From Candidatus Bathyarchaeota archaeon (GTDB lineage: Archaea; Thermoproteota; Bathyarchaeia; Bathyarchaeales; Bathycorpusculaceae): DNA of 64,000 nucleotides. Positions 1,886 through 7,686 of the stretch are shown piece by piece; positions within the stretch are counted from its first letter, which is position 1; every line of letters starts with the position of its first letter. The position numbers and the translations under genes are program-made. Location: NCBI GenBank assembly GCA_963806535.1, contig CAWDYC010000009.1, positions 1-64,000 of the forward strand, written 5' to 3'. Below the pieces are notes generated by a model. The model saw only the letters and a list, made by a program, of their open reading frames with translations. It made no database searches and was not told the DNA's origin.

Positions 1886-2585
1886 ATGTCATTAATACCC
1901 CAAATCTCTAATCCATATTTAGGAGCTTTAATTGGCGGTTTAGTATATGGATTAGCGGTTTGCACTGCAACTTGCCTCCCTTACGTGGCGAGCTATATTG
2001 CAGGAACTGGTGCTGATTTCCGCAAAGGTGTCATAATAACCGCATTTTTTAATTCTGGACGAATTGCAAGTTATGCAATAATCGGAGGATTAGTCGGTTT
2101 GTTTAGCGGTTTATTCCGATTATTTGTCTCCAGTTCAGCTATTTCGCCTTTTCAAATTTATTCTTCATTTGCATTTGGCATAGTAACCATTATAATCGGC
2201 AGTTATATTTTGCTCACTTTAAAATCACGACCGAATTGCAATTCTCAACATACTAAAAGACTCAGATATAAATAGAAAAACTGGCAGATTCGGATTTGAT
2301 TTTGGCGCTTTTTCCCTTGGCTTAAGCAGAGGATTAATCATTTGTCCACCGTTGATAGCACTTCTAATTTATTCATTGCCATTCTCAAGTCCAGTTGGCA
2401 GTGTAGGTTTAGCTGTTCTGTTTGGGTTAGGAACAACGATTTCGCCGATACTTTTATTGGGGGGACTCACAGGCTGGCTTCTCAACAAGGCACCATTGCT
2501 TAGAAAATGGATTTCAATTGCAGGTGCAGGAATACTCATAGTGCTTGGAATTGGCACATTAATCAATTCAGTAATCCAAATTTAA
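1886..2585 (+). CDS. DsbD_2/TauE-SafE-like multi-pass membrane protein (frameshift ~2260-2290)
   Basis: Two hydrophobic ORFs 1886-2275 and 2352-2585 form one protein. Motifs CxxxC-LP (CTATCLP), FNxGRI, GLxxCPP and FGLGT are typical of DsbD_2. Confidence 0.75.
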
Positions 2586-2610
2586 CAATAATTGAAATGA
2601 GGAAAAATAA

Positions 2611-3596
2611 TTGAACTGGGACATCATAGCCAACATGCTAATAATCATAGTGCTTGCAGGACTTGCAGTAGCTGGTGTGCTTGCCGTTCTGATTTGGAAA
2701 AAAAACTTGGCGACAAAAATAACCTTCATGCGGCTAGCTATTCAAGCAGTTTCTTTTGGAGCATTATTTTACGTATTTTCTCTTTCTATTCCACTTCTTT
2801 ACTTTATGATCTTTATTTTTGGCATCACTATTGTTTTAGGTCGGCTTTACTGCGGTTGGTTCTGTCCTTTAGGTTTAGTCATGGACCTCGTCATTATGTT
2901 TAGAAAAGCACTCAAAATTCCTTATCGAAACCTTTCTGAAAAACTGAACCTTGAAGCTGCATCAATTAAGATATGTAATATTACTTTTCTTTTTGTTAAT
3001 TCCCGTAGCATTGTGGTTGATTCAGCCGCCTCCAAATATCGATTTTGCTTTGCTTATGGTGAAACTTTTAGCAGGTCCTTTTAGACCATACAGCATTCTT
3101 ATTGATCCAATGATACCATTCGTAGTTCCTTGGACTAGCGCAACTGTGTCAGTTTTCCAAATTAACTTCACATTCCCCTATGCTCAAGAATTTGTAACTT
3201 ATGCAGGACAAAATATTGGACAAGCTAGTCGCCATTGTTTTTGTCGGTTTAACGCTGGTTGGTTCATTTTTTATTAGACGATTTTGGTGTCGCTTTTGTC
3301 CTACAGCTGCTTCATTGGCTGTTGTAAATAGGTTTAAGGGATTTAAGTGGGCACCTCTGCTACATCTTGAAAAAGATGAAGAAAAATGTACAAAATGCGG
3401 TGTTTGCAAGAGAGTTTGTCAATCGCAAGTAACAGAAGTTTATGAGCAACGCGGTGGAAAAATCAATACCTCCATGTGCATGTTGTGCTTGCGATGTACG
3501 GAAATGTGTCCGTATGAAGATACGCTAAAATTGAAGTTTGGTAATAAGACACTATTTAAATCAAGAAACTGGCTGGAGCCATCAAAAAGTGAGTGA
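2611..3596 (+). CDS. NapH/MauN-like membrane 4Fe-4S binding protein (two frameshifts)
   Basis: ORFs 2611-3084, 2951-3277 and 3201-3596 join. GRLYCGWFCPLG and RFWCRFCP motifs, TM helices, C-terminal CTKCGVCKRVC and CMLCLRCTEMCP. Confidence 0.85.
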
Positions 3597-3603
3597 AAGA
3601 AAC

Positions 3604-4935
3604 ATGAAGACAGAAAATGTTGAAAAAAAATACATGCCTGAAATCTCCAAAAAAGAAGCTGAAGAAATGAGAAATTCTATGAAAGCGGCTTCTGAGAAGA
3701 TAATGGCTGAAAATATTGAGCGCATGAAGAAAGCCGACCCAAAAAGACCTGAATCTATGAAGTATTTTGATGAAATGGCCAATTTATTCGGCCAACGCCC
3801 AAAAGAAATTATGGCTGAGAAGGAAAAAGGCAAGAAAGTTATTGGTTACACCTGTCTTTTTGCTCCAACTGAGATGATTTTAGCTGCAGACGCTATTCCA
3901 GTCGGAGTAAATTCTGGATGGTATGATACTGCTAAACTTGGCGATAGGGTTGTGCCCGTGGAGGTTTGCCCAGTTATCCGCTCAACCATAGGCGCAAAAA
4001 TGATTGAGTTGTCGCCTTTTCTTGAGTTAAGTGACGTTTTAATTAGTGTTTTAACATGTGACGGAATGACCAAACTAAGCGAGATTTTAAGTGACAGCAA
4101 GACAATTTGGGATATGAATATTCCAAGAGTTAAAGATGCACCACAATCACTTCATTTTTGGAACCAGGAAATTAGATACATAAAAACACAAATTGAAGAA
4201 TTAACCGGTAATAAAATTACTCGCAAAAATCTTAAAGCAGCTATTGAAGAGACGCAGAATGCAACACGAGCGTTTCGCAGACTGCAGGATCTACGTAAGG
4301 GGCCACCAGTGATTATGGGCAGAGATGCTATGCTTGTTAATCAAGCGTATTTATGGGATGATAAAAAGCGGTGGACCGAAAAAACTGAAGCTCTTTGCAA
4401 TGAACTTGAGCAGAGAGCACAAAGGAAAGAGTGGGTTTGCCCACTTGATACACCTCGCGTGTTAGTTACAGGTACTCCAATGTTTTGGCCTGATAACTGG
4501 AAACTACCGACACTTGTTGAAGAAGGCAACCCTAAGGGCATCATTGTTGCAGATGAACTTTGTTCAGGCGAAAGAATTCTCAACGACCCAGTTGGAGTAG
4601 ACGAATGGAACATGGATGACATGCTTAATGCGATAGGAGATCGATACTTGATGGCTTCGACATGTCCATGCTTTACCTCTAAGGATGGAAATGAAGACAG
4701 GATTAACTGGCTTGTAAACAAGGTTAAAGAATCAAATGTTCAAGGCGTCATTTATTATGTAGTGCGTGGCTGCATGCTCTATGCCATGGAGTACACCAGA
4801 ATCAAGAAAGCTCTTGACAAAATAAACATTCCAGTATACTACCTTGACACTGATTATACAAGAGAAGATGTTGGGCAAATGAAGACGCGTGTTGAAGCTT
4901 TCCTTGAAATGTTAACAGCAAGAGTTGAAATCTAA
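3604..4935 (+). CDS. 2-hydroxyacyl-CoA dehydratase/BCR-family Fe-S protein, double-cubane-cluster protein (DCCP) type
   Basis: Seven-Cys pattern GYTC, VCP, TCDG, ELCSG, TCPCF (two Cys), GC, plus NWKL and the C-terminal TDYTREDVGQMKTRVEAFLE. Confidence 0.8.
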   Translation: MKTENVEKKYMPEISKKEAEEMRNSMKAASEKIMAENIERMKKADPKRPESMKYFDEMANLFGQRPKEIMAEKEKGKKVIGYTCLFAPTEMILAADAIPVGVNSGWYDTAKLGDRVVPVEVCPVIRSTIGAKMIELSPFLELSDVLISVLTCDGMTKLSEILSDSKTIWDMNIPRVKDAPQSLHFWNQEIRYIKTQIEELTGNKITRKNLKAAIEETQNATRAFRRLQDLRKGPPVIMGRDAMLVNQAYLWDDKKRWTEKTEALCNELEQRAQRKEWVCPLDTPRVLVTGTPMFWPDNWKLPTLVEEGNPKGIIVADELCSGERILNDPVGVDEWNMDDMLNAIGDRYLMASTCPCFTSKDGNEDRINWLVNKVKESNVQGVIYYVVRGCMLYAMEYTRIKKALDKINIPVYYLDTDYTREDVGQMKTRVEAFLEMLTARVEI

Positions 4936-4948
4936 AAAAAGTGATTTA

Positions 4949-5735
4949 ATGATTACTGTCGGAATGGATTTAGGTACTCAAAGCGTGAAGATTGTAGTGC
5001 TTAAAGACGATGCTGTAGTTGTCAAGAAAGCAAGCGTTCTCAGGGTTCGACCCAACAAAAGCCGCCGAACAAGCAATAGATGAAGCACTTAAACAAGCAA
5101 ACATGCAAAAGTCTGATGTAGCCTATTTTGTCGCAACTGGCTCAGGTATGGATATGGCACCTTTCGCAAACAGCACTGTAAGCATGATGGGCGCGGACGC
5201 TAAAGCGGCAATTTACGTTTTCCCTAAAGCCAGAACAATTATTGATGTTGGCGCTGAAGAAGCAAGAGCAGTCAAATGTGATGAGAAAGGAATTATGGTT
5301 GATTTTGTTGTTAACGAACGCTGCGCAGCTGGTGCAGGAGCTTTCATTGAAGCAATGGCACGAGCTTTAGAAGTTAAATTCGAAGAGATGGGACCATTAT
5401 CTCTTCAAGCTGAACGGGCAAGTCCAATAAACGCTTCCTGCGTAATCTTTGGCGAATCTGACGTTGTTTCACTCATTCATCGCCAGGAATCAAAACCTGA
5501 AATTGCTAGGGCAGTTTTTGATGCAATGGCAGACCGAATTTCATCGATGATACATAGATTAGGAGTAAACCTTGAAGTAGTTCTTGTTGGCGGTGTAGCT
5601 AAGGATGTTGGCTTTGTCGCATCTTTAAATCGAAAATTAGGAATTAACGTGTTGATACCTGAATTTCCTGAATATGTTGGAGCACTTGGTGCTGCTCTTG
5701 TTGCTACCAATCGTGCAAAAGAGGGCCAAAAATGA
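4949..5735 (+). CDS. ATP-dependent activator (ASKHA archerase), BzdP-like (frameshift ~5020)
   Basis: ATG at 4949 gives MITVGMDLGTQSVK (ASKHA phosphate-1 loop), then shifts into ORF 5019-5735 with IDVGAEEAR, NERCAAGAG, SCVIFGESDVVSL, GGVAK, GALGAAL. Confidence 0.85.
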
Positions 5736-6643
5736 AGGAACCTAGCACAGTTAATGGTGACATTGAGTTTTGGCGCTGGGAGGAATACCAGCGTATAATG
5801 CCGGGAATAAAATGGACAAACAAGGACATAATAACTGCAGGCGTAGATGTTGGTTCTGTCGGTTCAAAAGCCGCCATAATGGTTAATGGTCAAGCTTACT
5901 CTTGGGGAATTACCAGGACAGGCTCTAACAGTCCTGAAAGCGCCAAGAAAGCATTAGACTGGGCGCTCATTGATACCGGACTCAAATCAACTGACATCAA
6001 ATACATTGTCGGCACAGGTTACGGTAGAGTCAACGTTCCAATGGCAAATAAAGCCATAACAGAAATTGCTTGCCACGCAAAAGGAGCAAATTACATTTGG
6101 GGACCAAGCGTCCGAACCGTACTCGACGTTGGAGGACAAGACATTAAAGCAATCCGAATCGACGAAAGTGGCAGAGTAGTCTCTTTCTTAATGAATGACA
6201 AATGTGCAGCTGGAACAGGTAGAGGAATGGAAGTTTTCGCCGATTTACTAAAAATTCCTATTGAAAAAATCGGAGAAATGTCTCTCCAAGTAAATGAGGA
6301 ACCGCCTCCAGTAAGTTGCACTTGTGTGGCTTTTGCAAAAACTGAAGCCGTGGGACTCCTCCGCAAAGGCTGGTCTAAAGAAAAGGTTTTAGCAGCATAC
6401 ACTCGTGCAATGGCAGTTCGCATGGCTAACTTGATTAATAGGGTAGGCTTAGAAAAAGAATTAGTTATTACTGGGGGACAATCAAAGAACATTGGAATTG
6501 TCAACAGAATAGAAGTTGTTTTAGGAGAGAAATGTCTGCCGATGCCTAAATGGCGAGAGAACGGCTTAGATCCTATGATTGCAGGCGCGTTAGGTGCGGC
6601 GCTTTTCGGGAAAGCACTCTACGAGAAAGCACAGAAAACTTAG
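5732..6643 (+). CDS. ATP-dependent activator, BzdQ-like
   Basis: N-terminal EFWRW extension, GVDVGS, RTGSNSPESA, GTGYGRVNVP, TEIACHAKG, DVGGQD, MNDKCAAGTGRGMEV, TCVAFAK. ATGA overlap with the upstream gene. Confidence 0.9.
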   Translation: MKEPSTVNGDIEFWRWEEYQRIMPGIKWTNKDIITAGVDVGSVGSKAAIMVNGQAYSWGITRTGSNSPESAKKALDWALIDTGLKSTDIKYIVGTGYGRVNVPMANKAITEIACHAKGANYIWGPSVRTVLDVGGQDIKAIRIDESGRVVSFLMNDKCAAGTGRGMEVFADLLKIPIEKIGEMSLQVNEEPPPVSCTCVAFAKTEAVGLLRKGWSKEKVLAAYTRAMAVRMANLINRVGLEKELVITGGQSKNIGIVNRIEVVLGEKCLPMPKWRENGLDPMIAGALGAALFGKALYEKAQKT

Positions 6644-6658
6644 AAGCGTTCTAAACTT

Positions 6659-6952
6659 ATGATTACACATTATGGTTACAGCGATGGATCAGGCGAGTAC
6701 TACATAACTATTGACACCGACAAGTGCAACGGTTGTGGCAAATGCGTTAGGGAATGCCCCGAATCAGCACTTCAGATGGAAATCATGTTAATAGACCTTG
6801 AAGACAAGACCGTGGCGTCAGTTACTGAGGAGCACCGGAAAAAAATAAAGTATACGTGTGCTTCCTGCAAACCCGAAATCAATGCTACCTTTTGCGTTCT
6901 AGCCTGTGAGTCCAAAGCGATTAAATGCACGTGGAACGCTCATTTATTTTGA
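6659..6952 (+). CDS. Ferredoxin, BzdM-like
   Basis: YGYSDGSGEYYITIDTDKCNGCGKCVRECP and a second CxxC...CxxxC cluster motif. Confidence 0.85.
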   Translation: MITHYGYSDGSGEYYITIDTDKCNGCGKCVRECPESALQMEIMLIDLEDKTVASVTEEHRKKIKYTCASCKPEINATFCVLACESKAIKCTWNAHLF

Positions 6953-7134: not shown

Positions 7135-7686
7135 TTGGCAAGAAATCCTCAGTCGAAAGATGAAGCATTGGAAGCCATAGACTTCATCGTAAATGTTTTA
7201 AAAGAACATGAGAAAGATTTGGATAAACTGATTAATGAGTTAGCAACCGTCACTGAGCAACTTGGAGACACCGGTCAGATAAATGGTAAAGTAGAAAAGG
7301 TTGAAGAAAAAATAAATAACTTGCAAAAAGAAGTCACAAATCTAATTGCTTACTTATCGAGTAAACCACAAGAGACTCTTCCTGTAGCAGCAAAAGAACA
7401 GGAAGCTCAAGCGACATCTACCGCGGCGGTTCAAATCGGACCGTCTCTGATTTTTAGATGTAAGCAGTGGGAGGATTTTCAAACTTTAGCTTTTCAAGCT
7501 CAGAGATTGTCTTTCAGCTTCACAGAAGACGAGAAGAGTTTCCAAGCTGACGCGTTTAAGGGTAACCAGATCATTATTTATAATGGCCCTGTTCCAAAGT
7601 TGTCAGCCGTTTTGAAAGCATGGTTGTCTAGACAACTGGATATTCCAGAAGGAAGTATTCTGGAAGGCGTTTTAGCAATTAGCTAA
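7135..7686 (+). CDS. Hypothetical protein with N-terminal coiled coil
   Basis: 183-aa ORF with heptad-like N-terminal half and upstream GGGGT SD-like motif. Confidence 0.7.
   Translation: MARNPQSKDEALEAIDFIVNVLKEHEKDLDKLINELATVTEQLGDTGQINGKVEKVEEKINNLQKEVTNLIAYLSSKPQETLPVAAKEQEAQATSTAAVQIGPSLIFRCKQWEDFQTLAFQAQRLSFSFTEDEKSFQADAFKGNQIIIYNGPVPKLSAVLKAWLSRQLDIPEGSILEGVLAIS

Follow-up and report, generated by a model that had tools for sequence, protein, structure and literature searches.

We report that a stretch of DNA from a member of the Bathyarchaeia, which are abundant archaea of sediment and peat, carries a conserved operon in which the gene for a protein resembling double-cubane-cluster proteins (DCCP) is followed by genes for two unlike archerase ATPases and a ferredoxin, and is preceded by genes for two membrane proteins (Table 1). 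The stretch analysed, hereafter referred to as the window, corresponds to the first 64 kb of contig C9 in the genome assembly of a Candidatus Bathyarchaeota archaeon, which comprises 2.95 Mb in 12 contigs and is 91.75% complete. Profile matches, structural models and comparison with the corresponding loci of related genomes indicate that the operon probably encodes an ATP-driven, very-low-potential reductase of the DCCP kind, which would be equipped with an activator of the P/Q type, its own ferredoxin and membrane proteins.

A first-pass annotation of the window had described four tightly coupled genes between positions 3604 and 6952, and this was borne out: the four genes are located on the same strand, with 13 nt between the DCCP-like gene and the gene for ATPase 1, an overlap of 4 nt (ATGA) between the two ATPase genes, and 15 nt between the gene for ATPase 2 and the ferredoxin gene. 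The motifs that had been listed are present in the translations, including the two cluster motifs of each ATPase and the ferredoxin start HYGYSDGSG. These coordinates cover the unit only in part, since the conserved unit starts at approximately 1886. In Pfam searches the 443-aa protein matched PF06050 (HGD-D; E 1.3e-94), the two ATPases matched PF01869 (BcrAD_BadFG; E 1e-42 and 1.9e-50) and the ferredoxin matched Fer4 families.

Table 1. Genes of the window operon, with the neighbouring CARDB gene, and Bzd-like clusters of other Bathyarchaeia used for comparison (bits refer to NCBIfam models)
Feature	Position	Strand	Remarks
CARDB protein, C-terminal part of approximately 778 aa	3..1766	+	N-terminal membrane anchor; cut by contig start
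DsbD_2-family membrane protein, 232 aa in relatives	1886..2585	+	CTATC and CPP motifs; extra base near 2263
NapH/NosR-like membrane polyferredoxin, 327 aa in relatives	2611..3596	+	extra bases near 2953 and 3225
DCCP-like double-cubane-cluster protein P0001, 443 aa	3604..4935	+	inferred ligands C84, C122, C152, C320, C354, C390
Archerase ATPase 1, BzdP-position type, 261 aa in relatives	4949..5735	+	ERCAAG and SCVIF; 1-nt insertion near 5021
Archerase ATPase 2 (P0003), BzdQ type, 303 aa, N-terminal extension	5732..6643	+	DKCAAG and TCVAF
Ferredoxin P0004, 97 aa	6659..6952	+	eight conserved Cys, HYGYxDGSG start
Bzd-like cluster G108	L090:2515-9651		BzdN 445 bits, BzdO 545 bits, 264-aa archerase, BzdQ 384 bits, 94-aa ferredoxin, 799-aa NADPH-oxidoreductase-like protein
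Bzd-like cluster G071	L092:3551-8034		BzdN 442 bits, BzdO 548 bits, 264-aa archerase, BzdQ 377 bits, 94-aa ferredoxin

For the analysis of gene synteny, a contig scan yielded 175 loci encoding a relative of the DCCP-like protein, and the best 80 of these (66-98% identity) were kept; most are labelled Bathyarchaeia, Bathyarchaeota or Bathycorpusculum, some have broader archaeal labels and one is labelled Sulfotelmatobacter. Where counts are given for loci with room, these are the loci whose contig extends far enough to include the neighbouring gene in question. Identity within the DCCP-like clade is at least 66% across the 80 genomes. The ATPase 1 gene lies beside or after the DCCP-like gene in all 80 loci and is followed by the ATPase 2 gene in 79, while the ferredoxin gene follows the ATPase 2 gene in 74 of the 80 loci (and in 72/72 where there is room of at least 2050 nt).

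The 443-aa protein, P0001, had been taken for a DCCP-type protein rather than for a relative of BzdN, BzdO or HgdB, and profile scores, sequence matches in PDB, predicted fold and phylogeny all agree with this. Among the NCBIfam models, the DCCP model NF040772 scored highest with 341.4 bits, followed by HadC (109.6), BzdN (82.0), BcrC (70.5), HadB (25.7) and BzdO (18.3); the cut-offs are 453.8 for BzdN (TIGR03190), 700 for HadC and 750 for HadB. By sequence, the best PDB matches are the DCCP structures of Carboxydothermus hydrogenoformans (7YYL and 6ENO; E 4-6e-80, residues 45-437), with weaker matches to BzdN (2.6e-20) and HadC (2.4e-18). An AlphaFold model of P0001 based on a 45-row alignment (pLDDT 92.9, pTM 0.92) gave 6ENO as the best Foldseek match (TMq 0.88, TMt 0.92, 428 columns, 34% identity), while TMq was 0.76 for both BzdN and HadC. 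The match to 6ENO covers the N-terminal helices of the model, H16-44, H52-58 and H64-74, and it is this N-terminal extension that in DCCP is described as closing the CoA funnel of the dehydratases (PMC7317905, in excerpt).

A HMMER search of 1.84 billion representatives returned 2948 proteins with E ≤ 0.001. Among the best 150 of these 2948, the best full-length matches are only 42-45% identical to P0001, fragments aside, and NF040772 is the best model for all 92 representatives of 370-500 aa. In a quick maximum-likelihood (ML) tree of 103 rows, consisting of these 92 representatives, nine members of the window clade, the second paralogue of the genome and one outgroup of the dehydratase family, the window clade (9/9 rows) forms a single branch (SH-aLRT 100) inside the radiation of proteins for which NF040772 is the best model. 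Its neighbours are P0130, P0126 and P0127/P0128, and the second paralogue of the genome is found in another clade. P0001 is 35% identical to this canonical DCCP paralogue, 30% to E. coli YjiM and 27% to a bathyarchaeial BzdN. The search for representatives also identified fused proteins of 677-837 aa. In P0129, P0144, P0238, P0254, P0155 and P0212, DCCP-family proteins are joined to a single archerase at either end, to an FHA domain (P0155) or to a PucR-type helix-turn-helix domain (P0212). A length-restricted search for fused forms > 776 aa gave none at E ≤ 1e-30, which is weak evidence.

Our statements on the ligands and the motif of DCCP follow a review from 2020 (PMC7317905, in excerpt), which gives a seven-Cys motif, CX19CX18-19CX29CX166-170CX32-34CX32C, where six Cys ligate the [8Fe-9S] cluster and the seventh, Cys94, adjoins the cluster without being a ligand. 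In P0001 the Cys of the listed pattern are those of GYTC (C84), VCP (C122), TCDG (C152), ELC (C320), CPCF (C354 and C356) and GC (C390), with the spacing C-X18-(N)-X18-C-X29-C-X167-C-X33-C-X35-C, and the protein also has NWKL and the tail DTDYTREDVGQMKTRVEAFLEM. The printed alignment places C84, C122, C152, C320, C354 and C390 on the ligand Cys of 6ENO, six of six, as had been proposed for the double-cubane ligands. All six are invariant in 76 of the 76 sequences of the window clade (the window protein and 75 orthologues; five of the 80 loci were dropped as they had no single open reading frame, ORF), and likewise in the 45-row alignment, which includes 21 distant DCCP-family proteins. The seven-Cys pattern that had been read in P0001 thus holds for the listed motifs and for the six ligand positions, while the published seventh Cys is missing; its position is occupied by Asn103, and the number seven was reached by counting both Cys of CPCF. 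The second Cys of CPCF, C356, is kept in the window clade and is variable across the family.

As regards the integrity of the operon, the ATPase 1 frame starting at ATG 4949 reads MITVGMDLGTQSVK... and reaches a stop after 44 codons, with the remainder of the gene in the next frame from approximately 5019; the ORF listed at 5019-5735 is this remainder only. The first ATPase gene is hence real, as predicted, but it is not a single open frame in the window owing to one extra base near 5021. In the 98% identical relative L009, ATPase 1 is encoded by one ORF of 261 aa, and 75 of 79 related loci with room have an intact ORF of 245-285 aa. Contigs of relatives (90-95% alike; three runs from three studies) have one letter fewer at 5020/5021, and one letter fewer was also seen at 2263, 2953 and 3225 (one or two runs); the breaks in the genes for DsbD_2 (2263), the NapH-like protein (2953 and 3225) and ATPase 1 (5020/5021) coincide with these missing letters. 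The relatives' contigs are also one letter shorter at position 4934, which falls within a run of A at the stop codon of the DCCP-like gene.

Moreover, the assembly disagrees with itself: C12:1-5254 repeats C9:5430-10681 with 99.58% identity, 14 mismatches and 7 gap openings, and the C12 copy of the ATPase 2 gene carries a TAA. This repeat represents either assembly redundancy or a second strain, and it shows the level of indel errors in the assembly. Given that the genes are intact in relatives and that the assembly is inconsistent with itself, the single-base breaks are very probably assembly errors. Four frame breaks inside 3.2 kb, from approximately 2263 to 5021, might instead mean that the unit is a decaying pseudogene cluster, with the insertions in the DsbD_2, NapH-like (two) and ATPase 1 genes as real mutations; the comparison was with contigs of relatives, and a search of sequencing runs gave 10 DNA runs, each with 0.05-0.08 of the words, and no RNA run, the window strain not being found among them. 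We consider such decay unlikely. Every break is a single extra letter relative to the contigs of relatives, and the broken genes are otherwise free of internal stops and encode proteins with 91-94% identity to those of L009 (98% for the DCCP-like protein). The 7 gap openings between C12 and C9 fall within 5.2 kb, with the TAA in the second copy of ATPase 2 in addition, and the other loci with a broken ATPase 1 gene are L051, L079, L087 and L088, of which L079 and L087 are broken in many genes.

The two ATPases are 31-35% identical to each other (cross-matches) and have different kin. For ATPase 2 the best PDB match is MbdQ (E 7.8e-57), and its match to TIGR03192 (bzdQ) spans positions 9-292 of the 293 in the profile and therefore includes the N-terminal extension; the BcrA score is 142.8 bits. 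The intact ATPase 1 of L009 scores 205 bits with TIGR00241, 156 with BcrD and 139 with BzdQ. This profile of NCBIfam scores is the same as for the subunits in the P position of bathyarchaeial clusters, and no BzdP model is present among the NCBIfam matches. DCCP-R (7YYL_E) is the fourth of five PDB matches for each of the two ATPases.

Reference clusters came from a sample of 121 genomes of the class, 29 of which had a PF06050 match, and where adjacent pairs of PF06050 genes occur in other families. Two Bzd-like clusters, G108 and G071 (Table 1; cut-offs BzdN 453.8, BzdO 448.6 and BzdQ 380.2), belong to other Bathyarchaeia of the same order, and the PF06050 search of these genomes gave no DCCP gene of the window type. 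These Bathyarchaeia also have a second, dehydratase-like alpha/beta pair without an archerase of its own (L090:15347-17703 and L091:3056-5388).

A careful ML tree of 29 archerases was computed, unrooted, from eight ATPase 1 and nine ATPase 2 sequences, two P and two Q subunits, and others, i.e. a Rhizobium pair, E. coli YjiL, an archerase from an Azoarcus plasmid and four archerase domains fused to DCCP. In this tree ATPase 1 groups with the BzdP-position subunits and ATPase 2 with BzdQ, each with support 100/99, and both YjiL and the DCCP-fused archerases are placed elsewhere. The identities are in keeping with this, 48-50% for ATPase 1 and the BzdP-position subunits and 62% for ATPase 2 and BzdQ.

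The ferredoxin, with the Cys motifs CX2CX2CX3CP and CX2CX8CX3C, shares 56% and 60% of its residues over 94 aa with the ferredoxins encoded immediately behind BzdQ in G108 and G071, as well as the start MxxHYGYxDGSG. In comparison with the YfhL-type ferredoxin of the Azoarcus plasmid only the first cluster motif aligns (10/23), and matches in the ESM Atlas are generic 4Fe-4S ferredoxin clusters only, mostly from Bathyarchaeota. The label BzdM-type was instead assigned by comparison with the bathyarchaeial Bzd-like clusters. The plasmid collection yielded no bzd cluster; it yielded E. coli YjiL/YjiM, a dehydratase-like cluster from Azoarcus KH32C and a four-gene cluster from Rhizobium. With the tree and the identities to the bathyarchaeial clusters, the earlier proposal of a BzdPQ/BzdM-type module finds support, and as judged from sequence the electron-activating module is common to the window operon and the BzdNOPQ-like clusters, while the acceptor is not.

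With respect to the acceptor, BzdN and BzdO are absent both from the operon and from the 91.75%-complete genome, which has only two PF06050 genes, both of the DCCP type, namely the window gene and C11:130217-131260. The C11 paralogue scores 500.3 bits with NF040772 and has all seven motif Cys, thus retaining Cys at the position of Cys94. It is located (C11:128717-132760; cf. L007:6000-10200) beside selD (NF010705 344 bits, cut-off 291) and a DsrE-like gene, and no archerase gene lies in the vicinity; a genome-wide co-occurrence of DCCP and SelD, described in part of bioRxiv 10.1101/2022.07.06.499078, fits this neighbourhood. The archerase genes of the genome are the window pair and its duplicate on C12 only.

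Many relatives in the 121-genome sample have a single PF06050 gene, with a score of the window type, and all five such relatives that were chosen, one of them a single-contig genome, have exactly two archerase genes, both beside that gene. A division with one activator per paralogue is disfavoured by this result, as are BzdNO partners that have escaped notice; BzdN or BzdO encoded elsewhere as the true partners of the ATPases, which had been named as the alternative at the outset, were found neither in the genome nor in these five relatives.

The same data bear on whether the ATPases form a heterodimer at all, since each could be homodimeric in the manner of DCCP-R, HgdC or HadI and serve a separate acceptor, for example the window DCCP-like protein and the C11 DCCP, respectively. 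The numbers are compatible with such a division, in that two DCCP-family genes stand against two archerase genes in the genome, with no archerase beside the C11 paralogue. The characterised activators of DCCP and of the dehydratases are all homodimers in the accounts excerpted from PMC7317905 and PMC9351452, and both ATPases score higher against homodimeric HadI (165 and 183 bits) than against MbdP. We nevertheless regard separate homodimers as very unlikely, because the five relatives with one PF06050 gene keep both ATPases beside it, because the ATPase genes are adjacent in 79 of the 80 loci and overlap by 4 nt in the window, and because each ATPase clusters with one subunit of a P/Q pair, such pairs being heterodimeric in MbdONPQ (9GAI).

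The absence of a BzdO-type catalytic subunit from operon and genome also means that the operon, on its predicted gene content, is not a benzoyl-CoA reductase, and with a HadB-type subunit missing too and the N-terminal extension in place, CoA esters are unlikely to be the substrate. A reductase of aryl- or enoyl-CoA, or a 2-hydroxyacyl-CoA dehydratase, built on one homodimeric subunit, as implied by labels such as 'BcrC/BadD/HgdB' or 'incomplete BcrACD', would agree with an activator module and ferredoxin that are those of BzdNOPQ-like clusters, with source annotations that name a benzoyl-CoA reductase/2-hydroxyglutaryl-CoA dehydratase subunit, and with the suggestion that short DCCP-family members without the N-terminal extension (YjiM) might take CoA esters (PMC7317905, in excerpt), but it is highly improbable given that operon and genome have no catalytic subunit of the BzdO, BcrB or HadB type, that P0001 reaches 82 bits for BzdN (cut-off 453.8) and 110 for HadC (cut-off 700), that its N-terminal helices align with those which in 6ENO close the CoA funnel (PMC7317905, in excerpt), and that for Bathyarchaeum tardum, with 'BcrACD without BcrB', the excerpted text of PMC10477458 reports inhibition of growth by benzoate and no matching ligases or reductases.

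The upstream genes point to a link with the membrane. In L009 the DsbD_2 gene (L009:4287-4985) matches PF13386 with E 2.1e-23 over profile positions 2-198 of 199, while the window ORF 1886-2275 covers positions 2-93 only. The NapH-like gene of L009 (L009:5010-5993) matches Fer4_5 (PF12801) with E 4.9e-14 and the napH model TIGR02163 with 72 bits (cut-off 213), and encodes predicted membrane helices, two CX3CP motifs and two 4Cys [4Fe-4S] motifs; the pieces in the window match the N and C parts of the NapH models. The gaps in L009 are 25 nt between the DsbD_2 and NapH-like genes and 7 nt between the NapH-like and DCCP-like genes, and in the window the NapH-like gene likewise ends 7 nt before the DCCP-like gene. 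It is directly upstream of the latter in 62 of 76 loci with room. Of 74 loci with room, 64 have a DsbD_2 gene on the same strand no more than 1.9 kb upstream, and in 16 it is itself directly upstream of the DCCP-like gene. For the CARDB gene the corresponding count is 47/68 (same strand, within 4.5 kb), in L009 116 nt separate it from the gene that follows, and the full-length relative (L009:1835-4171) matches PF07705 with E 4.7e-9 and no NCBIfam model; whether the CARDB protein is a member of the unit is uncertain.

Moreover, one of the 150 representatives, P0206 (677 aa), is a fusion that joins an N-terminal NapH-like half to a DCCP-like domain with all seven Cys; membrane helices, CX3CP-type motifs and two [4Fe-4S] motifs are present in the NapH-like half, which shares 29-32% identity with the bathyarchaeial NapH-like protein. 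A model of the complex between the DCCP-like and NapH-like proteins gave an ipSAE of 0.63 (0.60, 0.63 and 0.65 in separate runs), compared with 0.00 for the best of three controls, with a partner pLDDT of at least 66 and with the runs agreeing in at least 95% of the contacts. Of 157 solved complexes 116 attained this ipSAE mark, as did 2 of 215 mismatched pairs, counts that are only rough here as custom alignments were used. In the modelled interface the [4Fe-4S] motifs of the NapH-like protein (256-268 and 294-300) lie against residues 328-353 of the DCCP-like protein, just before ligand C354. To our knowledge, no structure of this type of complex has been solved, and a known template is hence an unlikely source of the model's score. 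Adjacency, fusion and complex model agree, and this suggests that the NapH-like protein is a partner of the DCCP-like protein.

Taken together, we propose that the operon's ferredoxin would reduce a [4Fe-4S] cluster held between the BzdP-type and BzdQ-type ATPases by two Cys from each, and that ATP binding and hydrolysis would drive the electron into the [8Fe-9S] double cubane of the 443-aa subunit, which is probably a homodimer. From there the electron would either reduce a substrate at the double cubane or move on to the NapH-like and DsbD_2 membrane proteins. The cluster type, the pairing of the two ATPases as a heterodimer, the sequence in which electrons flow and the connection to the membrane proteins are our inferences; as far as the double cubane, the path is modelled on related systems in which it is established, DCCP:DCCP-R (PMC9351452, in excerpt) and class I benzoyl-CoA reductase (PMC11971306, in excerpt).

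As a tentative extension, one that we hold to be possible but doubtful, the double cubane could act as a relay that passes electrons of sub-ferredoxin potential to the Fe-S domain of the NapH-like protein, its CX3CP sites and the DsbD_2 protein, which is lined with Cys, and so to a target in or beyond the membrane, with the acceptor perhaps located at the CARDB surface protein. According to the excerpted parts of PMC11971306, BzdN has the [8Fe-9S] cluster on the same six positions, also without the seventh Cys, and its double cubane is read as an electron store and not as a catalytic site. The printed alignment has Leu at the position of Cys94 in BzdN, and a role as relay would fit the loss of Cys94, since BzdN, an electron store, shares that loss. 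If the relay is true, this would be the first membrane-coupled archerase system, in which the cell would spend ATP to export electrons of extreme potential from the cytoplasm.

Several observations weigh against reading the operon as a DCCP-kind reductase with a P/Q-type activator and membrane partners. The NF040772 score of 341.4 bits is 8.6 under the curated cut-off of 350, yet it is three times that of the next family; the scores of the 92 nearest representatives range from 171 to 524 bits and many of these are also below 350. The position of Cys94 is Asn in 70 of the 76 clade members and Ser in the remaining 6, never Cys, and the cluster may therefore have a different chemistry from the one in the characterised DCCP. 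Among the 103 tree rows this position is Cys in 68 and Asp in 13, and as the rows with Asp belong to several separate clades, absence of this Cys is not confined to the Bathyarchaeia.

On the side of the activator, ATPase 2 scores 351.3 bits with TIGR03192, 29 under the cut-off of 380.2, and the heterodimer of the ATPases is deduced from how their genes pair and from their kinship. The unrooted archerase tree comprises 29 rows with several long branches, and the references for BzdP, BzdQ and the ferredoxin are bathyarchaeial clusters named by NCBIfam scores, not the characterised enzymes of Azoarcus or Thauera; either of the two arrangements may have come first. Of the 76 loci with room, 14 lack the NapH-like gene at the directly upstream position, and the score of the complex expresses the model's own confidence. 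Finally, the unit in the window is frame-broken in the genes for DsbD_2, the NapH-like protein (two breaks) and ATPase 1, and this copy could be inactive if the breaks were real.

The DCCP-kind reductase proposed here resembles several known systems in part. With DCCP/DCCP-R (6ENO, 7YYL, 7YZM; NF040772) it shares the whole-length fold including the N-terminal extension, the six ligand Cys, and an adjacent gene for an ATP-dependent ASKHA reductase with two cluster Cys per chain. It differs in having two unlike subunits of the BzdP and BzdQ type instead of one homodimeric DCCP-R, its own ferredoxin, Asn or Ser for Cys94, NapH-like and DsbD_2 proteins, and an NF040772 score below the cut-off.

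The likeness to BzdNOPQ (8S02 for BzdNO; 9GAI for MbdONPQ; TIGR03190-03192) lies in the P-like and Q-like ATPases, in this order, followed by a related ferredoxin. In contrast to these systems, the window operon lacks BzdO, the catalytic subunit with an aqua-[4Fe-4S] cluster, and an orthologue of BzdN (27% identity, 82 bits), and has a single DCCP-type subunit with an N-terminal extension instead. Unlike the G108 cluster it has no large NADPH-oxidoreductase-like gene behind the ferredoxin gene, and has membrane proteins upstream instead.

E. coli YjiM/YjiL likewise combines a DCCP-family protein with an adjacent archerase gene; YjiM, 30% identical, is shorter and has no N-terminal extension, and the single archerase YjiL falls outside the P and Q clades. 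Polyferredoxins of the NapH/NosR/CcoG type have in common with the NapH-like protein the helices, the two CX3CP motifs, the two [4Fe-4S] motifs and the matches to Fer4_5 and napH, but the window protein is far under the cut-off (napH 72/213), no genes for NapG, NapC, NosZ or an oxidase are found nearby, and its partner appears to be a cytoplasmic ATP-driven reductase. HgdAB/HadBC dehydratases are alpha and beta heterodimers, whereas the window operon has one subunit gene only.

The gene cluster has been seen before, in the cultivated Bathyarchaeum tardum, but was read as BcrACD: in the excerpted text of PMC10477458, 'three adjacent genes, encoding BcrACD' are reported without BcrB. The prediction that such genes would be mislabelled as benzoyl-CoA reductase has thus come true, both there and in the JGI names BcrC/BadD/HgdB. 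In Bathyarchaeia, genes of the bzdN, bzdO and bzdQ type are taken to indicate degradation of aromatics (PMC12869995 and PMC12694404, both in excerpt); as a practical warning, an inference of aromatic degradation from such genes does not hold for the window operon. In our search of the article literature, no paper emerged that describes a P/Q-type activator or a NapH-like partner for a DCCP, and a search for double-cubane together with Bathyarchae gave one unrelated paper only.

The natural function of double-cubane cluster proteins is described as an open question (excerpts of PMC7317905, PMC9351452 and PMC11971306), and a conserved clade with fixed partners provides a defined multi-protein system to reconstitute, with a hint that the electron goes to the membrane. 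Moreover, the activating module of class I benzoyl-CoA reductase is paired with two different acceptor modules within a single archaeal class, which bears on the evolution of benzoyl-CoA reductases (BCR), HAD and DCCP; DCCPs have been proposed as the archetype of the family (PMC11971306, in excerpt).

As regards the genes that flank the operon, in the closest relative a gene for a CDF-family cation efflux protein (L009:437-1819; TIGR01297, 232 bits) lies upstream of the CARDB gene, and the window contig starts too late to include the corresponding position. Behind the ferredoxin gene, positions 7135-7686 of the window encode a 183-aa protein with weak matches of the coiled-coil type only; its gene comes next after the ferredoxin gene in 20 of 66 loci with room and is located farther away in others.

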